From the UHGV virus genome UHGV-0123446: a stretch of 35,688 nt of DNA, one strand, 5' to 3'. This stretch comes from a virus. How positions within the stretch are numbered: position 1 is the stretch's first letter; every line of letters starts with the position of its first letter. The notes below the pieces were generated by a model. That model was given only the letters and a program-made list of their open reading frames with translations. It did no database searches and was not told the DNA's origin. Positions 3,080 through 32,873 of this stretch are shown piece by piece. The position numbers were made by a program, and so were the translations under genes.

Positions 3080-3595
3080 TTGACCATGTTTGATTACCAA
3101 GTTTCCAAACATCCACATTTTGATGAAGCCTGTCGTGCATTCGCATTGCGCCACAACCTAGTGCAACTGGCAGAACGTGCAGGCATGAATGTGCAGATTC
3201 TGCGGAACAAGCTGAACCCAGCTCAACCTCATTTATTAACCGCACCAGAAATCTGGTTGCTTACCGATCTGACTGAAGATTCAACGCTGGTAGATGGCTT
3301 TCTGGCACAGATTCACTGCCTGCCATGTGTACCGATTAATGAGGTGGCAAAAGAGAAACTGCCGCATTACGTCATGAGTGCAACTGCAGAGATAGGGCGT
3401 GTCGCGGCAGGTGCGGTTTCTGGCGATGTAAAAACCAGTGCAGGCCGTCGTGATGCGATCAGCAGCATTAACTCTGTTACACGACTGATGGCGCTGGCTG
3501 CTGTTTCATTGCAGGCCAGTTTACAGGCTAATCCTGCGATGGCGAGTGCAGTTGATACCGTGACTGGCCTCGGTGCTTCATTCGGTTTGCTGTGA
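3080..3595 (+). CDS. CII-like transcriptional activator (phage 186 CII family)
   Basis: N-terminus [45 protein letters not shown] matches my recollection of 186 CII; about 170 aa; position after apl. Confidence 0.6.
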
Positions 3596-4636: not shown

Positions 4637-5487
4637 GCACCATCCTGAAATGGGCAGGAAATAAAACCGCCATAATGTCCGAACTGAAAAAGCATCTTCC
4701 TGCTGGCCCGCGACTGGTTGAACCTTTCGCGGGTTCCTGTGCAGTGATGATGGAGACGGATTATCCCAGCTATCTTGTTGCGGATATTAATCCTGATTTA
4801 ATCAACCTCTATAAAAAGGTTGCTGCTGATTGTGAGGCGTTTATATCTCGTGCCAGAGCTTTATTTGAGGAAGCAAACAGGGAGGTGGCTTATTACAACA
4901 TAAGGCAGGAGTTTAATTACTCCACTGAAATTACTGATTTCATGAAAGCGGTATATTTCCTGTATCTCAATCGTCACGGTTACCGTGGTTTATGTCGCTA
5001 TAACAAGAGCGGGCATTTCAACATTCCCTACGGTAATTATAAAAATCCGTATTTCCCTGAAAAAGAAATTCGCGCATTTGCAGAGAAAGCCCAGCGGGCA
5101 ACGTTTATCTGCGCCAGCTTTGATGAAACGCTGGCGATGTTGAAGGTGGGGGATGTGGTGTATTGCGATCCGCCTTATGACGGTACGTTTTCCGGCTATC
5201 ACACTGATGGTTTCACTGAAGATGATCAGTATCACCTGGCATCCATTCTTGAACATCGGTCATCAGAAGGACATCCGGTCATTGTTTCTAACAGTAACAC
5301 GTCTTTGACCCGGTCCCTTTATCGTAATTTCACTCACCACTACATCAGGGCGAAACGCAGCATCGGCGTTGCAGCGGGGGAGGGAAAATTTGCAACAGAG
5401 ATGATTGCCACTAAATCTGCTAATTGGTTTAGTGCCGATTTTAGTAGGGGACGTGACTCTACTGTTATTTTCGGGGTGCAAGTGTGA
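4633..5487 (+). CDS. Orphan DNA adenine methyltransferase (Dam family, N6-adenine); ORF-track start 4573 is an extension
   Basis: N-terminal SAM-binding motif LKWAGNK...EPFAGSCAV and catalytic DPPY motif ([10 protein letters not shown]); no adjacent restriction endonuclease. Confidence 0.85.
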
Positions 5488-6314
5488 AAGAAATGCACCA
5501 CGGAATTCATCATTTCCATGGGACGCCTGTCTGGGGAAGTGCTGGCGACGTTCATCGTATTGCGGTGAGCGGAGCTGGCGCTTTCGTCTCCTATGTACGA
5601 CCAGATCAGATTGCGGCGTCCATTCAGCACGCTCAGGTCGTCGGCATTGATAACGGCGCATTTTCTGCATGGGTGCGTGGGCTAAAAATTAACTGGAGTG
5701 ATTTTTATAAATGGCTCCTGAACTATTACCACCATCCTAAGGTCGCTTTTTTTGTCATTCCTGATGTTGTGGACGGAGGTGAACGTGACAATGATGCCCT
5801 GATAAACGAAGTTCCGAAAATGTTCTACGGGAAGGCAACTCCCGTCTGGCATCTGCACGAGTCAATCGATCGGCTTATCGAGCTATGTCGTGAATGGCCT
5901 CGTGTCTGCTTTGGATCGTCTGGTGAATATGCGGCTATCAGAACTGCGCACTGGCATCGTCGTATGCAGGACGCTTTTGAAGCAATTTATTGCCGACACA
6001 ATTTCAAAACAGCTGTTCATGGTTTGCGCATGCTTGACGGTCGTGTGTTGGGAAATTACCCACTGGCGACTGCCGACAGTACAAATCTTGCCTGCAATGT
6101 CCCCAAATTTAATAGCAAATATCCTGAGCTGACGCGGGCTATTCAGGAGGCTGAGTATTCGCGCAATCTGACGGAAAAGGAGCTGAAAGCTGTCATTCTG
6201 AAAAACCGTTGCGCAATTTTAAAAGGTGCAATTGAAGCTGTTCGCCCACCTTCAGTTTCTGATTGGCTGTCGAATGGTTTGCAGCCTTCACAGCTCGAAC
6301 TGGAGATTGCGTAA
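5484..6314 (+). CDS. Uncharacterised protein (about 275 aa) translationally coupled to dam; function unknown
   Basis: GTG start overlaps the dam stop (GTGA), stop overlaps the gene A start (TAATG); no recognisable nucleotide-binding or zinc motif. Confidence 0.5.
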
Positions 6315-8838: not shown

Positions 8839-9027
8839 ATGCAGGACTATTTTTTGGAGTCTTTGAAGCTCCAGCGCATTGATTTTTTTCTTAAGCTTGT
8901 AGCGGCTAGTGAGTGTAGTGATGAAGAGAAGGGGCTGGCCCTGCAGTGGGTTTCTGAACTGACAGATGAACTCATGGCAAAAATCAGAACCCATGAATAC
9001 AACCGCTCAATGGATGTCATCAGCTGA
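8839..9027 (+). CDS. Small protein (62 aa) downstream of the LexA box; possible N-terminal part or partner of a Tum-like antirepressor
   Basis: aggagg SD just upstream of the ATG; ends 10 bp before the DinI-like ORF in a different frame. Confidence 0.4.
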   Translation: MQDYFLESLKLQRIDFFLKLVAASECSDEEKGLALQWVSELTDELMAKIRTHEYNRSMDVIS

Positions 9028-9037
9028 GGTGACTTTT

Positions 9038-9271
9038 ATGCGCATTGAAATAATGATCGATAAAGAGCAGAAGATTAGCCAGTCTACACTGGACGCCCTT
9101 GAATCCGAGCTTTACCGCAATCTGCGCCCCCTGTATCCCAAAACGGTAATTCGTATCCGCAAAGGTAGCTCTAACGGTGTGGAACTGACCGGACTGCAAC
9201 TGGACGAAGAAAGAAAACAAGTGATGAAAATTATGCAGAAGGTGTGGGAAGACGACAGCTGGCTGCATTAA
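9038..9271 (+). CDS. DinI-like protein (77 aa)
   Basis: MRIEIMIDKEQKISQSTLDALESELYRNLRPLYPKTVIRIRKGSSNGVELTGLQ...VWEDDSWL resembles E. coli DinI (MRIEVTIAK...) along its length; LexA box upstream. Confidence 0.7.
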   Translation: MRIEIMIDKEQKISQSTLDALESELYRNLRPLYPKTVIRIRKGSSNGVELTGLQLDEERKQVMKIMQKVWEDDSWLH

Positions 9272-9570: not shown

Positions 9571-10605
9571 ATGGATAAAAGATATCAGGTTTTTGTTAGT
9601 TCAACTTTTGCTGATCTTGAAGAAGAAAGACAGGAAGTAATGCAAGCACTGCTGGAGCTTGATTGTATGCCAGCAGGAATGGAATTATTTCCAGCAACAA
9701 ATAGTGATCAGTGGAGTTTAATAAAAAAAATAATTGACGATAGTGATTATTATATTGTTATCTTGGCAGGGCGTTATGGTTCAATTGGTCCTGATGGAAT
9801 AAGCTATACAGAAATGGAGTATCGTTATGCTTTGGAAACTGGTAAGCCAGTTATAGGTTTTATTCATAAAGATAAAAGTAACCTCCCCGCAAAACGTTGT
9901 GAGTCAAACCCTGAAGGCGTAGAAAAACTAAAGGCTTTCGAAGAGCTAGTTAAAACAAAATTATGTCGTTTTTGGGAGTCTCCTGCAGAGTTAGGTAGCC
10001 AGGTTAGCAGAAGTTTGATTAGACTAATTAAAGAATGTCCTGCAATTGGGTGGGTTAAAGGAAATTTAGTAACTAATGATGGTGATGCAAAGGAAATATT
10101 GAAATTAAAAAGGCGAATTGAGGAGCTTGAAAGTCAACTTGTATCAAGTATGACTGAAGCGCCTGCAGGTGCAGAAAAACTATCTCAAGGAGATGAGCTT
10201 TTTGAATTGGATTATGAATTCTGTGTGTCGCCTACAGAATGGAGACATAATGGTGAAGAATATACCGATAAGGTCAAATTAAGCTGGAACGATATTTTTT
10301 CATATGTTTCGCCTTTGATGATAGATGAGATAGTGGATGATAAGCTATATAGTGCTTTAAATAACTGTGTGCGAAATGCAGTTCAAGATATCATCTATGA
10401 GGATTTTAAAGATATGAATTTATTATCTTTAAAAGTATCTAATTCTGATTTCCAAACAATAAAAGTGCAGTTTAGGGCGCTTGGGTTAATTATTAAAAGT
10501 GAAAAGAGTAGAAGTGTTAAAGATAAAGGTACTTATTGGACTTTAACACCGTATGGCGAAAATTTAATGACAACATTGAGAGCGATTAAAAAAACTTTGG
10601 TATAG
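9571..10605 (+). CDS. Cargo protein of 344 aa with DUF4062/TIR-like N-terminal domain; candidate anti-phage defence protein
   Basis: Clean ORF with its own promoter and terminator; AT-rich; N-terminal pattern YQVFVSSTFADLEEER...DYYIVILAGRYGS...SYTEMEYRYA...GKPVIGFI recalled as the DUF4062 signature; no Walker A; coiled-coil-like stretch KEILKLKRRIEELESQL; unknown C-terminal half. Confidence 0.6.
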   Translation: MDKRYQVFVSSTFADLEEERQEVMQALLELDCMPAGMELFPATNSDQWSLIKKIIDDSDYYIVILAGRYGSIGPDGISYTEMEYRYALETGKPVIGFIHKDKSNLPAKRCESNPEGVEKLKAFEELVKTKLCRFWESPAELGSQVSRSLIRLIKECPAIGWVKGNLVTNDGDAKEILKLKRRIEELESQLVSSMTEAPAGAEKLSQGDELFELDYEFCVSPTEWRHNGEEYTDKVKLSWNDIFSYVSPLMIDEIVDDKLYSALNNCVRNAVQDIIYEDFKDMNLLSLKVSNSDFQTIKVQFRALGLIIKSEKSRSVKDKGTYWTLTPYGENLMTTLRAIKKTLV

Positions 10606-21290: not shown

Positions 21291-21888
21291 TCTGCTGCCA
21301 CCGGGTTCAACGCCACTGGAGCGCCGACTGGCGCAAACCTGTAGCGGGATTTCTGATTTGCAGGTGCCGCTGCGTGACTTGTGGAATCCGGCTACCTGTC
21401 CGGTCAGCTTCCTGCCTTATCTCGCCTGGGCGTTCTCTGTGGATCGCTGGGACGAGGGCTGGACAGAAAGCGTCAAACGCCAGGTAGTGAAGGATGCTTT
21501 TTATATTCATCAGCATAAAGGAACCACCAGTGCCGTGCGGCGGGTGGTGGAACCGTTCGGATTCCTGATCCGCATTATTGAGTGGTGGCAGACCGGAGAA
21601 ACACCGGGCACGTTTCGCCTGGATATCGGCGTGCAGGACCAGGGCATCACTGAAGATACCTATCTGGAACTTGAGCGACTGATAAGCGATGCCAAACCAT
21701 GTAGCCGCCACATGATCGGCATGTCCATCAATCTGCAGACCAGCGGCCCGCATTGGGTGGGAGCCGCCAGCTATCTTGGCGAAGAAATCACGATCTATCC
21801 GTATATCAACGAAACGATTATTTCCGGTGGCACCGCGCATGAAGGCGGGGCGGTCCATGTTATTGACACAATGAGAGTGAATCCATGA
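21283..21888 (+). CDS. I: Baseplate/tail protein gpI
   Basis: 201 aa, between J and the tail-fibre gene. Confidence 0.8.
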
Positions 21889-23285
21889 GCACAAAATTTT
21901 ATACCCTGCTGACGGATATTGGCGCGGCGAAACTTGCCAGCGCCGCCGCGCTCGGTGTGCCGCTAAAAATTACCCATATGGCGGTGGGCGATGGCGGCGG
22001 AGCATTGCCAACGCCGGACGCAAAGCAGACGGTACTGGTAAATGAGAAACGCCGGGCTGCGCTGAATATGCTCTATATCGACCCGCAGAACAGCAGCCAG
22101 ATTATTGCTGAACAGGTGATCCCTGAAAACGAGGGCGGTTGGTGGATACGTGAAGTGGGCCTGTTTGATGAGTCCGGGGCATTGATTGCCGTGGGCAACT
22201 GCCCGGAAAGCTATAAGCCGCAACTGGCTGAAGGCAGCGGGCGCACCCAGACCGTGCGCATGGTGCTGATTACCAGCAGCACGGACAATATCATCCTGAA
22301 AATCGACCCTGCTGTAGTGCTGGCAACCCGTAAATACGTCGATGATAAAGTCCTGGAATTAAAGCTGTATGTGGATGACCAGATGAGAAACCACATTGCC
22401 GCACAAGATCCTCATACCCAGTATGCGCAGAAACATAATCCGACATTTACCGGAGAACCAAAAGCGCCGACGCCTGCAGCAGGAAATAACACCACTCGGA
22501 TTGCGACCACAGAGTTTGTTCAGGCCGCTATTACTGCTCTGATTAACGGTGCGCCAGCCACGCTGGACACACTGAAAGAAATTGCCGTAGCAATTAACAA
22601 TGACCCGAAATTCAGTACCACTATTAATAATGCGCTGGCACTGAAAGCGCCGCTGTCGAGTCCGGCACTTACCGGAACGCCAACAGCACCTACTGCGGCA
22701 CAGTCGGTCAACAATACACAGATTGCCACTACGGCTTTTGTGAAATCGGCGATTGCAGGAATGGTGGGTTCTGCACCTGCGGCACTGGATACATTGAACG
22801 AACTGGCGGCGGCGCTGGGGAATGACCCGAACTTTGCCACGACAATGCTTAATGCGCTAGCAGGTAAACAACCGCTGGACAATACGCTGACTAATTTGAG
22901 TGGAAAGGATGTAGCTGGTCTTCTCGCATACCTTGGTTTGGGAGAAGCGGCTAAAAGGAATGTAGGGACAGGGGCGAATCAGATACCTGATATGGGTAGC
23001 TTCACGCTTTCTGTTTCAGGTACTGGATATCAAAAATTACCATCAGGTTTTATTCTTCAGTGGGGCTCAATCGGCGCACCAGGCATTGCACAGGATGTAG
23101 TAACCCATTTCCCGATTGCATTTCCAAACAGATGTCTGCGTGTTTTGGTCTCACAAGACTACACACCAGATAGCGGGGCTGTTGGTTATATTGCCTGTGC
23201 AGGTTTTAGTCCCGACCCGGTTAAATTTATATCCAGAGCCAGTACTCCTGGCCTAGGCGCTTCATTTTTAGCGTTAGGCTGTTAA
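21885..23285 (+). CDS. H: Tail fibre protein gpH; the C-terminal part (from about 22935) lies inside the invertible segment
   Basis: Conserved P2 gpH-like N-terminus [18 protein letters not shown]...; repeated A/T/N-rich fibre repeats; C-terminus follows the hix-like site. Confidence 0.85.
22921..22946. other. hix/gix-like invertase recombination site (left), inside gene H
   Basis: ttctcgcataccttggtttgggagaa; its reverse complement shares the half-site TTCTCCCAAACCAA with the site at 24846..24871 and resembles hixL (TTCTTGAAAACCAAGGTTTTTGATAA). Confidence 0.55.
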
Positions 23286-23306
23286 TTTAGCTATATGGAG
23301 TGAAAA

Positions 23307-23747
23307 ATGAATTACATATATTCCGCGACTACAAACTCTTTCTATCCGCTGGAGATGAAAGAGGATTACACTCAAGCTGACTCATGGCCAGATGATGCTG
23401 TTGAAGTTGATGAGCAAGTGTATATTGCGTTTTCCGGATTACCGCCGAAAGGAAAAATCCGTATCGCTGGAGAAAATGGTTTTCCTGCATGGTCCGAAAT
23501 TCCACCACCAACACATGAGGAACAAATTGCTGCAGCCGAACTGGAGAAGCAGCAATTGATTAATCAGGCCAACGATTATATGAACAGTAAACAATGGCCT
23601 GGTAAAGCGGCTATTGGTCGTCTGAAAGGTGACGAACTGGCGCAATATAATTTGTGGCTGGATTACCTGGACGCACTGGAACTGGTCGATACTTCCGGTG
23701 CGCCAGATATTGAATGGCCTACGCCTCCGGCAGTTCAGGCCAGATGA
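23307..23747 (+). CDS. G: Tail fibre assembly chaperone gpG (currently expressed orientation)
   Basis: 146 aa, conserved Tfa C-terminal pattern (LELVDTSGAPDIEWPTPP); directly after H. Confidence 0.8.
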   Translation: MNYIYSATTNSFYPLEMKEDYTQADSWPDDAVEVDEQVYIAFSGLPPKGKIRIAGENGFPAWSEIPPPTHEEQIAAAELEKQQLINQANDYMNSKQWPGKAAIGRLKGDELAQYNLWLDYLDALELVDTSGAPDIEWPTPPAVQAR

Positions 23748-24324
23748 CATCCGGCGCGGTGCTGGTATCTGTTGCCGTCACCGCGTCAATGTAATCCAGC
23801 ACAGCGTTAAGTCGGGTGGTTTCTGCCTGCGTCAGCTTCCGCCCGGCCTGCAATTTCAGTTGAATCAGACTGATGGAAGCCATTGCAGTATCAATCAGTG
23901 ACTGACGCTGTGCTTCTGCCGCGTCTACTGCGGCGCTATGCTGTGCCTCAGTATCGGTCACCCATTTCTTACCATCCCATTTATCGAATGGCGTTAACGG
24001 GGCGATAGTGGTTGTATTTTCAGGATAATCACCCGGAGCTGTGATTTCTTTGGCGTCTCCCGTTTCGGTGTTATAGACGATTTCACCGCGATGGTCTGGC
24101 ACATATTCCCATGCGTTTAAATCCATCGAACGGCAGATAGCATAACCCGCCTTATGTGTGCCAGGAGCATCTAAACAGGAATATGCAGGGATACCGACAC
24201 CCACAGCAAGATATTCAGTTGATGCAGAAATATACTCCCGTGTCTCACTGTCATAGTTATAAACGGTAATCTCTCCTGCCTTTGTGGCAATAAATTTACT
24301 ATTCAAGATGGCGTTATACATCAT
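23719..24324 (-). CDS. Alternative tail fibre assembly chaperone (inverse-orientation partner)
   Basis: 201 aa, Tfa-like C-terminus (DTSTAPDVIWPELPEA); convergent with and overlapping G; downstream of the alternative fibre tip segment. Confidence 0.75.
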   Translation of the reverse strand: MMYNAILNSKFIATKAGEITVYNYDSETREYISASTEYLAVGVGIPAYSCLDAPGTHKAGYAICRSMDLNAWEYVPDHRGEIVYNTETGDAKEITAPGDYPENTTTIAPLTPFDKWDGKKWVTDTEAQHSAAVDAAEAQRQSLIDTAMASISLIQLKLQAGRKLTQAETTRLNAVLDYIDAVTATDTSTAPDVIWPELPEA

Positions 24325-24857
24325 GCAGCCCTCACAATGTAATTAAATGAAATATTACGTGGGCGTGTCTCTGCTGCACCGACAATACTGGTACTCAACC
24401 CCGTCGCTGTTCGTTTGTTATTTTTATTTCCTTCAATCAGACAGTTGTAATCATCATTACCAATTAACGAATTAGTGGCATCAATACCGTCCGGGGACAA
24501 GGCATTAGTTGTAGAACTTAAAGTCAGCATCTCGTCTGAACTTGGAAGATTTTTTAATGGTATTTCATTGCGAGAAATACCCGCGTAAAAAAAGGACTCA
24601 TGCCTGTGCGCTTCAAAAGAGTCATCCTGAAGACTTAGCAAGGCACGTCCCGCATCCACACCACGCCCGTCATCCCAGCCACGAATAAACTCACCACGTA
24701 AATCAGGCAATTTATTTGTCGGATAAGCCTTTGCCAGTTCCGGGTATTCTTCAGCAGAAAAAGCGGCACCGTTACATTTCAGCCAGCCTGTTGGCGGAGT
24801 GGCGGAAGGCCACGGAACAGGCACGCCAACGGGTAATGCCGAACCTTCTCCCAAACC
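24321..24857 (-). CDS. Alternative tail-fibre C-terminal segment (promoterless; would be fused to the H constant part after inversion)
   Basis: Begins at the hix-like site with the same GLGE junction as H; contains the LPVGVPVPWPS...GWLKCNG...LPDLRG motif typical of Mu/P1/e14-type fibre variable parts. Confidence 0.7.
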   Translation of the reverse strand, partial: GLGEGSALPVGVPVPWPSATPPTGWLKCNGAAFSAEEYPELAKAYPTNKLPDLRGEFIRGWDDGRGVDAGRALLSLQDDSFEAHRHESFFYAGISRNEIPLKNLPSSDEMLTLSSTTNALSPDGIDATNSLIGNDDYNCLIEGNKNNKRTATGLSTSIVGAAETRPRNISFNYIVRAA

Positions 24858-24871
24858 AACGTTTAAGGAAA
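24846..24871. other. hix/gix-like invertase recombination site (right)
   Basis: ttctcccaaaccaacgtttaaggaaa; inverted relative to the site at 22921..22946; about 50 bp upstream of the invertase gene. Confidence 0.55.
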
Positions 24872-24920
24872 TGCAGAGGTAACAGCTAACTGGCATCATC
24901 TCCGGTTTTTATTCAGGGGG

Positions 24921-25493
24921 ATGATCATGCTTATTGGCTATGTACGCGTGTCAACAAATGACCAGAACACCGATTTGCAACGTAATGCACTGAACTGCGC
25001 GGGATGTGAGCGGATTTTTGAGGACAAAATCAGTGGCACTAAGTCCGACAGACCGGGGCTGAAAAAACTACTCAGGACACTATCGGCAGGAGACACGCTG
25101 GTTGTCTGGAAGCTGGACAGGTTGGGACGCAGTATGCGGCATCTTGTTACGCTGATAGAAGAGTTGCGCCAGCGTGGCGTGAATTTCCGAAGCCTGACTG
25201 ACAGTATTGATACCAGTACCCCAATGGGCCGTTTCTTTTTTCATGTCATGGGTGCCCTGGCTGAAATGGAACGCGAACTGATAGTTGAACGTACCAGGGC
25301 GGGGATTGCTGCAGCTCGCGACAAAGGCAGAGTAGGTGGACGCCGTCCTAAGTTGACCACCGAACAGTGGGCACAGATTGGACGTTTACTAGAGGCCGGA
25401 GAATCAAGACAGCGTATTGCACTGATTTTTGATGTGGGCGTTTCTACCATTTATAGAAAATTTCCGGCAAATAAGAGCAGTGAATCCCCCTGA
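24921..25493 (+). CDS. Serine DNA invertase (Hin/Gin/Pin/Cin family)
   Basis: N-terminal resolvase catalytic domain IGYVRVSTNDQ...VVWKLDRLGRS...MGRFFFHVMGALAEMERELIVERT and C-terminal HTH; closely resembles Hin. Confidence 0.9.
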   Translation: MIMLIGYVRVSTNDQNTDLQRNALNCAGCERIFEDKISGTKSDRPGLKKLLRTLSAGDTLVVWKLDRLGRSMRHLVTLIEELRQRGVNFRSLTDSIDTSTPMGRFFFHVMGALAEMERELIVERTRAGIAAARDKGRVGGRRPKLTTEQWAQIGRLLEAGESRQRIALIFDVGVSTIYRKFPANKSSESP

Positions 25494-25541
25494 ATCAGCA
25501 TAATTTTGATTATCCCTGCAAGCAGACAAATACCGTCATTT

Positions 25542-25559
25542 TGTGTGAATAACTGTACA
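25542..25559. promoter_or_regulatory. Late-promoter activator site TGT-N12-ACA upstream of FI
   Basis: tgtgtgaataactgtaca, about 80 bp upstream of the FI start. Confidence 0.45.
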
Positions 25560-32846: not shown

Positions 32847-32873
32847 ATAAATTTCAGGCAACAAAAAACCCAT
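32847..32873. repeat. attR core (27-bp copy of the attL core)
   Basis: Exact repeat of 590..616. Confidence 0.75.

Follow-up and report, generated by a model that had tools for sequence, protein, structure and literature searches.

The analysed stretch of DNA (35,688 nucleotides of UHGV virus genome UHGV-0123446; hereafter the window) very probably carries a host-range switch with two states, driven by an invertase and similar in kind to the e14 P, Mu G and P1 C segments, located in the gap between the tail genes G and FI of an E. coli P2-like prophage. A segment of 1.9 kb between two recombination sites contains two convergent cassettes, each of which is composed of a fibre tip and a chaperone. 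The locus has the anatomy of the characterised switches and is homologous to them, its alternative tip joins the constant part of the fibre in frame when the segment is turned over in silico, and close relatives carry it in both orientations. It is an ordinary, well-known and common kind of phage host-range switch, which is not novel because many P2-like prophages carry it.

The switch belongs to a P2-like tail gene cluster. The Pfam families Baseplate_J, Tail_P2_I, Phage_tail_fib, Caudo_TAP and Phage_sheath_1 were found in an order that matches the P2 record, and the genes J, I, H and G are followed by the sheath gene FI and the tube gene FII, as in Peduoviridae. Two further families, replication gene A protein (GPA) and baseplate hub protein (GPD), were also found. 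A sequence-only reading made earlier on this DNA had proposed a P2-type tail operon, which the gene order bears out with one refinement: the P2-type morphogenesis genes are combined with CI and CII immunity genes of the 186 type. The G-FI gap is the Z/fun hotspot of P2-like phages. A TGT-N12-ACA dyad is present upstream of FI and might parallel the site at which the pF promoter of P2 is activated. A regular-expression search of the annotated activator site of that promoter found no TGT-N12-ACA.

The fibre gene H (21885-23285, + strand) consists of a constant N-terminal part (Hc) and a variable tip. Hc (21885..22934) contains the Pfam Phage_tail_fib N-terminal domain (E = 1.5e-63) and ends at the crossover dinucleotide, inside codon L350. 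The currently expressed tip A (22935..23285) contains a Gp53-like_C domain (E = 1.2e-13) and is matched in tblastn searches by the tail-fibre tips of other phages; residues 355-466 of H differ between orientations. Tip A is also found at 100% amino-acid identity in GenBank KM389307 ('Phi06_2974 B'), an unannotated and unverified contig with no associated paper. The gene G (23307..23747, + strand) encodes the tail fibre assembly chaperone for tip A (Pfam Caudo_TAP, E = 2.6e-37; PHROG 188). The silent cassette is on the - strand. It contains the StfE-like tip B (24321..24857; Pfam Collar domain, E = 1.7e-15), whose PDB sequence matches are the T4 gp37 tip and short tail fibres, and its TfaE-like chaperone (23719..24324; Pfam Caudo_TAP, E = 5.6e-33; PHROG 105), the 3' end of which overlaps the 3' end of G by 29 bp. 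The two minus-strand reading frames agree in strand and position with those that the earlier reading had listed, and H and G are on the + strand, as it had stated. Tip B has no start codon within the invertible segment, and its mechanical minus-strand open reading frame extends to 24899, past the right site. A scan for sigma-70-like promoters found no site for the minus-strand cassette, which is weak negative evidence.

Inversion of positions 22933-24859 in silico yields a fibre protein H' of 528 aa. Its reading frame is maintained, and residues 1-354 (...LAYLGLGE) are common to H and H', as had been predicted from the GLGE codons present at both junctions. In the flipped arrangement, tip B is followed by the TfaE-like chaperone via an overlapping ATGA stop/start. 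Tips A and B are unrelated in sequence (BLASTP E = 1.2), as had also been claimed; the two chaperones, however, are related, with 38% identity across 72 C-terminal residues (E = 1e-11). The two tips may confer two distinct receptor specificities.

The recombination sites were found at the positions proposed earlier, one inside H and one beyond tip B. The left site (22921-22946; hix/pix-like) has the sequence TTCTCGCATACC-TT-GGTTTGGGAGAA with a predicted crossover core at 22933-22934, and the right site (24846-24871) has the sequence TTCTCCCAAACC-AA-CGTTTAAGGAAA with a predicted core at 24858-24859. Both are 26 bp long, are composed of imperfectly inverted 12-bp half-sites and lie in inverted orientation, in which TT and AA are the same dinucleotide. 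The sharing of half-sites also holds: the 14-mer TTCTCCCAAACCAA is common to both sites, on opposite strands, and occurs just twice in the whole window with up to 2 mismatches (0.29 occurrences expected). The window was scanned with a 12-2-12 layout and the invertase half-site consensus TTMTCNNAAACC (maximum score 20), a procedure that also finds the annotated crossover points of P1 cix and the boundaries of the Mu G segment. The left and right sites scored 19 and 17, respectively, and the next best position in the window scored 14. The maxima of 200 shuffled sequences ranged from 13 to 17; a score of 17 was reached once and a score of 19 never. A third recombination site, the sign of a shufflon, was sought by the same scan across the whole window, and the two sites alone stood above background. 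A multiple-inversion system such as p15B Min or the three-site P2-like locus of EPEC, which has at least three sites, was rejected on this count.

The invertase gene (24927..25493, + strand) encodes a serine DNA invertase of the Pin/Gin/Cin/Hin family with 188 aa. The protein contains an N-terminal resolvase domain with the nucleophilic serine (Pfam Resolvase, E = 7e-53) and a C-terminal helix-turn-helix (HTH_7, E = 1e-15), and it matches PHROG 125 (DNA invertase). The gene had been placed at 24921..25493. It is complete, and an upstream ATG at 24921 (open reading frame 24921-25493) is available, but the true start is probably the ATG at 24927, because RefSeq homologues start there and this residue aligns with residue 1 of Gin. 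The protein aligns with residues 1-184 of Mu Gin (PDB 3UJ3) with E = 7e-93, as against E = 3e-33 for gamma-delta resolvase, and is thus clearly nearer to the characterised invertases than to the resolvases. It shows 86%, 78% and 75% identity to PinE, Cin and Gin, respectively, which is in the range of the identities among those proteins (77-79%). The label of a Hin/Gin-family enzyme therefore stands in so far as this is a serine invertase of the Gin/Cin/Pin family, but its nearest counterparts are Pin and the P segment of e14, not Hin or Gin. An NCBIfam search gave sub-threshold matches only for the invertase and none for the fibre and chaperone proteins, and PADLOC gave no match for the invertase or the cargo open reading frames.

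A putative Fis-dependent recombinational enhancer (24945..25016) lies in the 5'-terminal part of the invertase gene and was located by alignment to the annotated P1 enhancer (nt 19-90 of cin). The alignment is gapless with 78% identity, and identity to pinE over this stretch is 88%; the remainder of the gene is 68-74% identical, below the level of the candidate enhancer. The distance from the right site to the candidate is 96.5 bp, compared with 95.5 bp in Mu. The centres of the putative Fis sites, which were placed by alignment and delimited in this analysis, are 49 bp apart. The spacing given in the literature for Fis-site centres is 48 bp. The stretch is probably a Fis-dependent enhancer, and inversion here may depend on Fis.

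Related prophages carry the segment in either orientation, and their breakpoints fall within the predicted sites. Among E. coli genomes with a related prophage that matched at a coverage of at least 80%, 43 carry the segment in the orientation of the window and 53 carry it flipped. The near-isogenic yak isolates LS4 and NQ3 have no mismatches over 9.7 kb outside an exact inversion of 1902 bp, which is bounded by TTGGTTTGGGAGAA and TTCTCCCAAACCAA and has its breakpoint within the homologous 14-mer. Dozens of E. coli prophages match the segment at 91-96% identity, the best database relatives reaching only ~96%, and several deposited P2-like phages with an annotated DNA invertase match 49-62% of the query at 86-94% DNA identity. 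Phase variation has been demonstrated experimentally in the P2-like prophages of EPEC E2348/69, the loci of which invert in culture (PMC4272514). For P2-like phages, a DNA invertase in the Z/fun hotspot, together with inversion of the genes beside it, has also been described (bioRxiv 10.1101/2024.10.15.618418). From these relatives we infer that the segment inverts in this particular strain as well.

It is unlikely that the locus is a frozen relic that has kept its sites and its invertase but has lost the ability to invert in this strain. Such a state could arise if a substitution had inactivated the invertase, if the right site had been weakened or if expression were lacking. In the right site, the outer half (TTTCCTTAAACG) is indeed degenerate and matches the consensus at 7/10 positions, and the sigma-70-like promoter scan found no site upstream of the invertase, although this is weak negative evidence. 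The scores of both sites nevertheless far exceed background, and the outer half of the e14 right site, located by the same scan, is similarly degenerate, yet e14 is reported to flip to ~1:1 in K-12 cultures (PMC4272514). The invertase open reading frame is of full length, its serine motif is VRVSTNDQ, the motif MLIGYVRVSTNDQ is identical to that of Gin, and the catalytic motif and the regulatory residues are the same as in Gin. The about equal frequency of the two orientations in close relatives also speaks against a relic.

It is highly improbable that the minus-strand tip open reading frame (24321-24899) is expressed on its own as a small tail protein and is not a silent cassette. An ATG is available at 24899, and RefSeq lists homologues as coding sequences for a 'phage tail protein' or a 'gp53-like domain-containing protein'. 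The first 14 codons, however, fall outside the segment, in a gap of 50 bp upstream of the invertase gene, where no promoter-like site was found, and the product would lack the N-terminal domain by which a fibre attaches to the baseplate. The equivalent gene of K-12, stfE, is annotated as a pseudogene fragment, and flipped genomes carry the tip sequence within a full-length H. The possibility that the inverted 14-mers are a by-product of conserved GLGE coding, the shared repeat encoding LGLGE in both cassettes, and that orientation changes by RecA-dependent homologous recombination can practically be dismissed, since a 14-bp repeat is well under the length needed for such recombination, each site continues past the 14-mer and forms a complete dyad of 26 bp that follows the invertase half-site consensus, the scan located nearly identical sequences at two positions in e14, and a dedicated invertase close to PinE with an enhancer-like 5' region adjoins the segment.

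The invertase-driven switch would operate as follows, by homology with the characterised systems. Dimers of the Pin-like serine invertase would bind both 26-bp sites and synapse on the Fis-bound enhancer, which would lie within the 5' part of the invertase's own gene. The enzyme would then cut at the central TT/AA dinucleotides and invert the 1.9-kb segment. The sequence itself shows that, in the present orientation, the late V-operon transcript encodes H with the gp53-like tip, followed by G. After inversion, the 354-residue N-terminus is joined in frame to the collar-domain, StfE-like tip, followed by the TfaE-like chaperone. A population of lysogens would consequently release two kinds of virions that differ in receptor specificity.

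A perfect 12-nt inverted repeat brackets the invertase open reading frame, with arms at 24911-24922 (ATTCAGGGGGAT) and 25484-25495 (ATCCCCCTGAAT). The upstream arm includes the Shine-Dalgarno sequence. Such a repeat is expected by chance once per 5.5 kb, and a check of four homologues showed an upstream arm that varies (ATTCAAGGAGAT, ATTCAGGGGATT) and a downstream arm that does not change to compensate. Long-range pairing in the mRNA could hide the ribosome-binding site and keep the level of the invertase and the rate of flipping low; we know of no such control described for this invertase family. The pair of gp53-like and StfE-like tips may target receptors not yet assigned. Taken jointly, these two proposals have only a slim chance of being right.

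The minus-strand open reading frames are best annotated as silent cassettes of a phase-variable fibre gene; public homologues are annotated as stand-alone 'phage tail protein' coding sequences. The orientation in the assembly is an arbitrary snapshot of a probably mixed population. Host-range prediction and phage engineering should assume two receptor-binding modules for this prophage. Beyond correct annotation, the significance of the locus is small: it is a further example of an invertible module of the e14/Mu/P1 type in the Z/fun cargo hotspot of P2-like phages.

The mechanism of the Mu G, P1 C and e14 P segments had been assigned to this locus earlier, and the comparison supports it, the layout being equal to those of the annotated Mu G segment and e14 P segment. 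The P segment of e14, a cryptic lambdoid prophage of E. coli K-12, has the same order of elements: fibre N-terminus, tip, tfaP-like gene, convergent tfaE-like gene, stfE-like tip and an invertase outside the segment. TfaE and the stfE fragment of e14 show 88% and 55% identity, respectively, to their counterparts in the window, and TfaP shows 61% identity to G over 102 aa. The e14 sites, located by the scan, differ from those of the window at 3/26 positions on the left (CTCTCGAAAACCTTGGTTTGGGAGAA) and at 2/26 on the right; the TT/AA core, the LGLGE junction and the 29-bp convergent overlap of the chaperone genes are the same. The element e14 is a defective lambdoid prophage, whereas the window contains a complete P2/186-like myovirus prophage. 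The constant part is StfP in e14 and P2 gpH, with the Phage_tail_fib N-terminal domain, in the window, and the StfP tip has little similarity to tip A (28% over 124 aa).

The Mu G/Gin and P1 C/Cin systems follow the same logic, with two cassettes of tip plus chaperone and an invertase just beyond the right site. An enhancer is annotated inside the 5' end of cin in P1, the location of the candidate here. The segment is shorter in the window (1.9 kb) than in Mu (3.06 kb) and P1 (4.3 kb), and its TT/AA core is shared with P1 cix, whereas Mu gix has TC/GA. The tips and chaperones encoded by Mu S, U, S' and U' are distantly related to those of the window (26-30% identity for the chaperones).

Canonical P2 (NC_001895) has the same J, I, H and G genes followed by FI and FII. 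It had been said to lack the switch, and this is correct: its fibre has one tip only, fun(Z) occupies the space between G and FI, and neither an invertase nor a second cassette is present. Many P2-like prophages, in contrast, carry the switch. The same G-FI position and gene content are found in EPEC E2348/69, the Z/fun-hotspot loci, pro483, Cartapus, 500465-1 and Klebsiella KP12, and a DNA invertase is annotated in the last four. Some P2-like relatives have three sites or three cassettes and are shufflon-like (PMC4272514), whereas the window has two sites. The pairing of tips varies among these relatives.

The tail fibre gene H is cut by the first of two 26-bp hix/pix-like recombination sites, which bound an invertible segment of about 1.9 kb. 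The left site (22921-22946, TTCTCGCATACC-TT-GGTTTGGGAGAA) and the right site (24846-24871, TTCTCCCAAACC-AA-CGTTTAAGGAAA) were recovered by a repeat finder as an inverted pair of 18 nt with 94% complementarity. The 14-mer TTCTCCCAAACCAA occurs exactly twice in the 35.7 kb, once per strand, with two mismatches allowed (expected, 0.29). Each 26-mer of the window was also scored for its fit to two invertase half-sites (consensus TTMTCNNAAACC) laid out as 12-2-12 (maximum 20). The left and right sites scored 19 and 17, respectively, and the next best 26-mer scored 14; in 200 shuffles the top score was mostly 14-15, reaching 17 once and 19 never. The scan was validated on P1, where it recovered the annotated cixL and cixR with the central dinucleotide at the annotated crossover points, and on Mu, where both G-segment boundaries were recovered. 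The inverted sites with a common half-site that the sequence-only reading had placed at these coordinates are present and stand above the shuffle background. No third site was found in the window by the consensus scan, which makes this a two-state switch rather than a shufflon.

The gene H (21885-23285, +) encodes a 466-aa protein whose N-terminal fibre domain is P2-type and whose tip is Gp53-like_C, and G (23307-23747, +) encodes its chaperone (Caudo_TAP). The minus strand carries an alternative tip with a collar domain (24321-24857) and a second Caudo_TAP chaperone gene (23719-24324); together with the invertase gene, these are the open reading frames listed earlier from the sequence alone. 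In-silico flipping of 22933-24859 gave a 528-aa fusion protein that is the same as H to residue 354 (...LAYLGLGE) and continues into the alternative tip, so the proposed in-frame joining to the constant H N-terminus was obtained. The alternative chaperone gene starts at an ATG that overlaps the stop codon of this tip. No similarity could be detected between the two tips, which had been claimed to be unrelated (E = 1.2), and both Pfam and PHROG place them in separate families. The collar tip has matches to the solved tip of T4 gp37 and to short tail fibres. The two tips would be expected to bind different receptors. Over the last 72 residues the two chaperones are related (38% identity, E = 1e-11). 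The convergent chaperone genes overlap by 29 bp at their 3' ends (23719-23747), so that both C-termini are encoded by the same DNA on opposite strands. This overlap is also found in the K-12 cryptic prophage e14 (tfaP/tfaE) and in the homologues of strains LS4, NQ3, EcPNK004 and GmM062, whereas U and U' of Mu do not overlap.

Taken mechanically, the minus-strand tip frame (24321-24899) begins with the ATG at 24899, 14 codons beyond the right site, and a promoter scan found no promoter-like site in the region of this ATG. RefSeq lists the silent tip cassette as a CDS of its own, named "phage tail protein" or "gp53-like domain-containing protein", with its start outside the invertible segment (5442-5987 and 5598-5990 in the homologous loci L001 and L002, respectively; the equivalent frame in the window is 24321-24899, -). 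Such entries probably arise as an artefact of annotating phase-variable fibre genes. The K-12 counterpart of the alternative tip, stfE, is an annotated pseudogene. The homologous locus of E. coli G5 (NZ_CP060065.1, 1156277-1160712) has, in the switch region, an IS1A transposase together with three genes for tail fibre assembly and may be a disrupted or expanded variant.

The invertase gene (24921/24927-25493, +) encodes Resolvase and HTH_7 domains. Its product aligns with residues 1-184 of Mu Gin (PDB 3UJ3; E = 7e-93; gamma-delta resolvase, E = 3e-33) and has the identical serine motif VRVSTNDQ. It is 86%, 78% and 75% identical to e14 PinE, P1 Cin and Gin, respectively, which are 77-79% identical among themselves, and its earlier assignment to the Hin/Gin family of serine invertases is upheld. 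A perfect 12-nt inverted repeat flanks the gene (24911-24922, ATTCAGGGGGAT; 25484-25495, ATCCCCCTGAAT), with the Shine-Dalgarno sequence within the upstream arm. One such repeat is expected by chance, and in four homologues the upstream arm varies without compensating change; the repeat probably does not form a structure.

In the P1 record, nt 19-90 of cin are annotated as the enhancer of inversion by Cin. The corresponding stretch of the window (24945-25016) gives ungapped alignments with the P1 enhancer (78% identity) and with pinE (88%); the remainder of the gene shows 68% and 74% identity, respectively. The first conserved G-N13-C element (GTGTCAACAAATGAC) lies 96.5 bp from the right-site centre, compared with 95.5 bp in Mu. 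The Hin enhancer contains A/T-rich ATTTA and TAATG elements between its Fis sites (PMC3798978), where the window has ATTTG and TAATG. This conservation supports, but does not prove, a putative Fis-dependent enhancer at 24945-25016, on which inversion here would depend together with Fis.

Both arrangements occur in relatives. Among 5,426 complete E. coli genomes searched with the observed and the in-silico flipped versions of the locus, matches at >= 80% coverage were found in 43 and 53 genomes, respectively; the best hits shared 96.0% and 95.8% identity with the query across all 3.7 kb. In the yak isolates LS4 and NQ3 (chromosomes of 5,196,956 and 5,196,957 bp), the homologous prophage regions do not differ over 9,691 bp save for an exact 1,902-bp reverse-complement. 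This segment is flanked by TTGGTTTGGGAGAA and TTCTCCCAAACCAA, which places its breakpoints within homologues of the predicted sites. Sequencing has detected invertible loci of P2-like prophages in both orientations within clonal cultures of EPEC E2348/69, one locus having three sites, and both orientations of e14 were confirmed by PCR (Goldberg et al., PMC4272514). The segment presumably flips in the present strain as well.

The window is E. coli chromosome, in which rcdA is followed by a prophage and then by ybjL, ybjM and grxA. At each end of the prophage stands one copy of a 27-bp direct repeat (ATAAATTTCAGGCAACAAAAAACCCAT; 590-616 and 32847-32873); the copies are probably attL and attR of an element inserted between rcdA and ybjL. 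The prophage looks complete. It carries genes for an integrase, 186-type CI and CII, replication gene A protein (GPA), a P2-type tail and baseplate hub protein (GPD), and annotations of matching genomes name ogr. The immunity genes are like those of phage 186 (2137-2712, -, Phage_CI_repr and Phage_CI_C; 3080-3595, +, CII protein CP76), so "P2-type" fits the tail genes and not the whole phage. At its N-terminus, a 344-aa protein (9571-10605, +; PHROG 15411, function unknown) carries a DUF4062 domain (Pfam E = 1.5e-29). Its gene, noted alongside an open reading frame at 8966-9271 (+), lies between the replication gene A/DinI-like gene and the expected portal-gene region, which is the old/tin cargo hotspot of P2-like phages. 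The protein had no PADLOC match and may therefore be an uncharacterised defence candidate.

The switch lies downstream of P2 J and I and upstream of the sheath and tube genes. A TGT-N12-ACA dyad (TGTGTGAATAACTGTACA) at 25542-25559, some 80-95 nt before the sheath gene begins (25636), resembles the activator site for Ogr/Delta in P2 late promoters, although the pattern was not matched in the pF site annotated in P2. If the dyad is such a site, the invertase cassette would separate the end of the V operon from the F promoter.

In canonical P2, fun(Z) lies between G and FI and there is no invertase, in line with the earlier statement that P2 lacks the switch; the switch occupies this cargo hotspot, which is known in P2-like phages. 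The variant with an invertase is widespread in E. coli, and Klebsiella, Salmonella and Shigella phages have it too. The Mu/P1/e14-type switch was correctly observed and interpreted in the sequence-only reading, and as a switch of an already known kind it will not surprise specialists. The e14 sites located by the same scan, CTCTCGAAAACCTTGGTTTGGGAGAA and TTCTCCCAAACCAACGTTTATGAAAA, differ from those of the window at 3 and 2 positions, respectively, and share the TT/AA core and the encoded LGLGE junction. In the alternative cassette, identity to the e14 counterparts is 88% for TfaE and 55% for StfE. The element belongs to the Pin/Gin/Cin/Hin invertible tail-fibre switches, and its close invertase, sites and cassette, with the 29-bp overlap, make the e14 P segment with Pin the closest characterised system.
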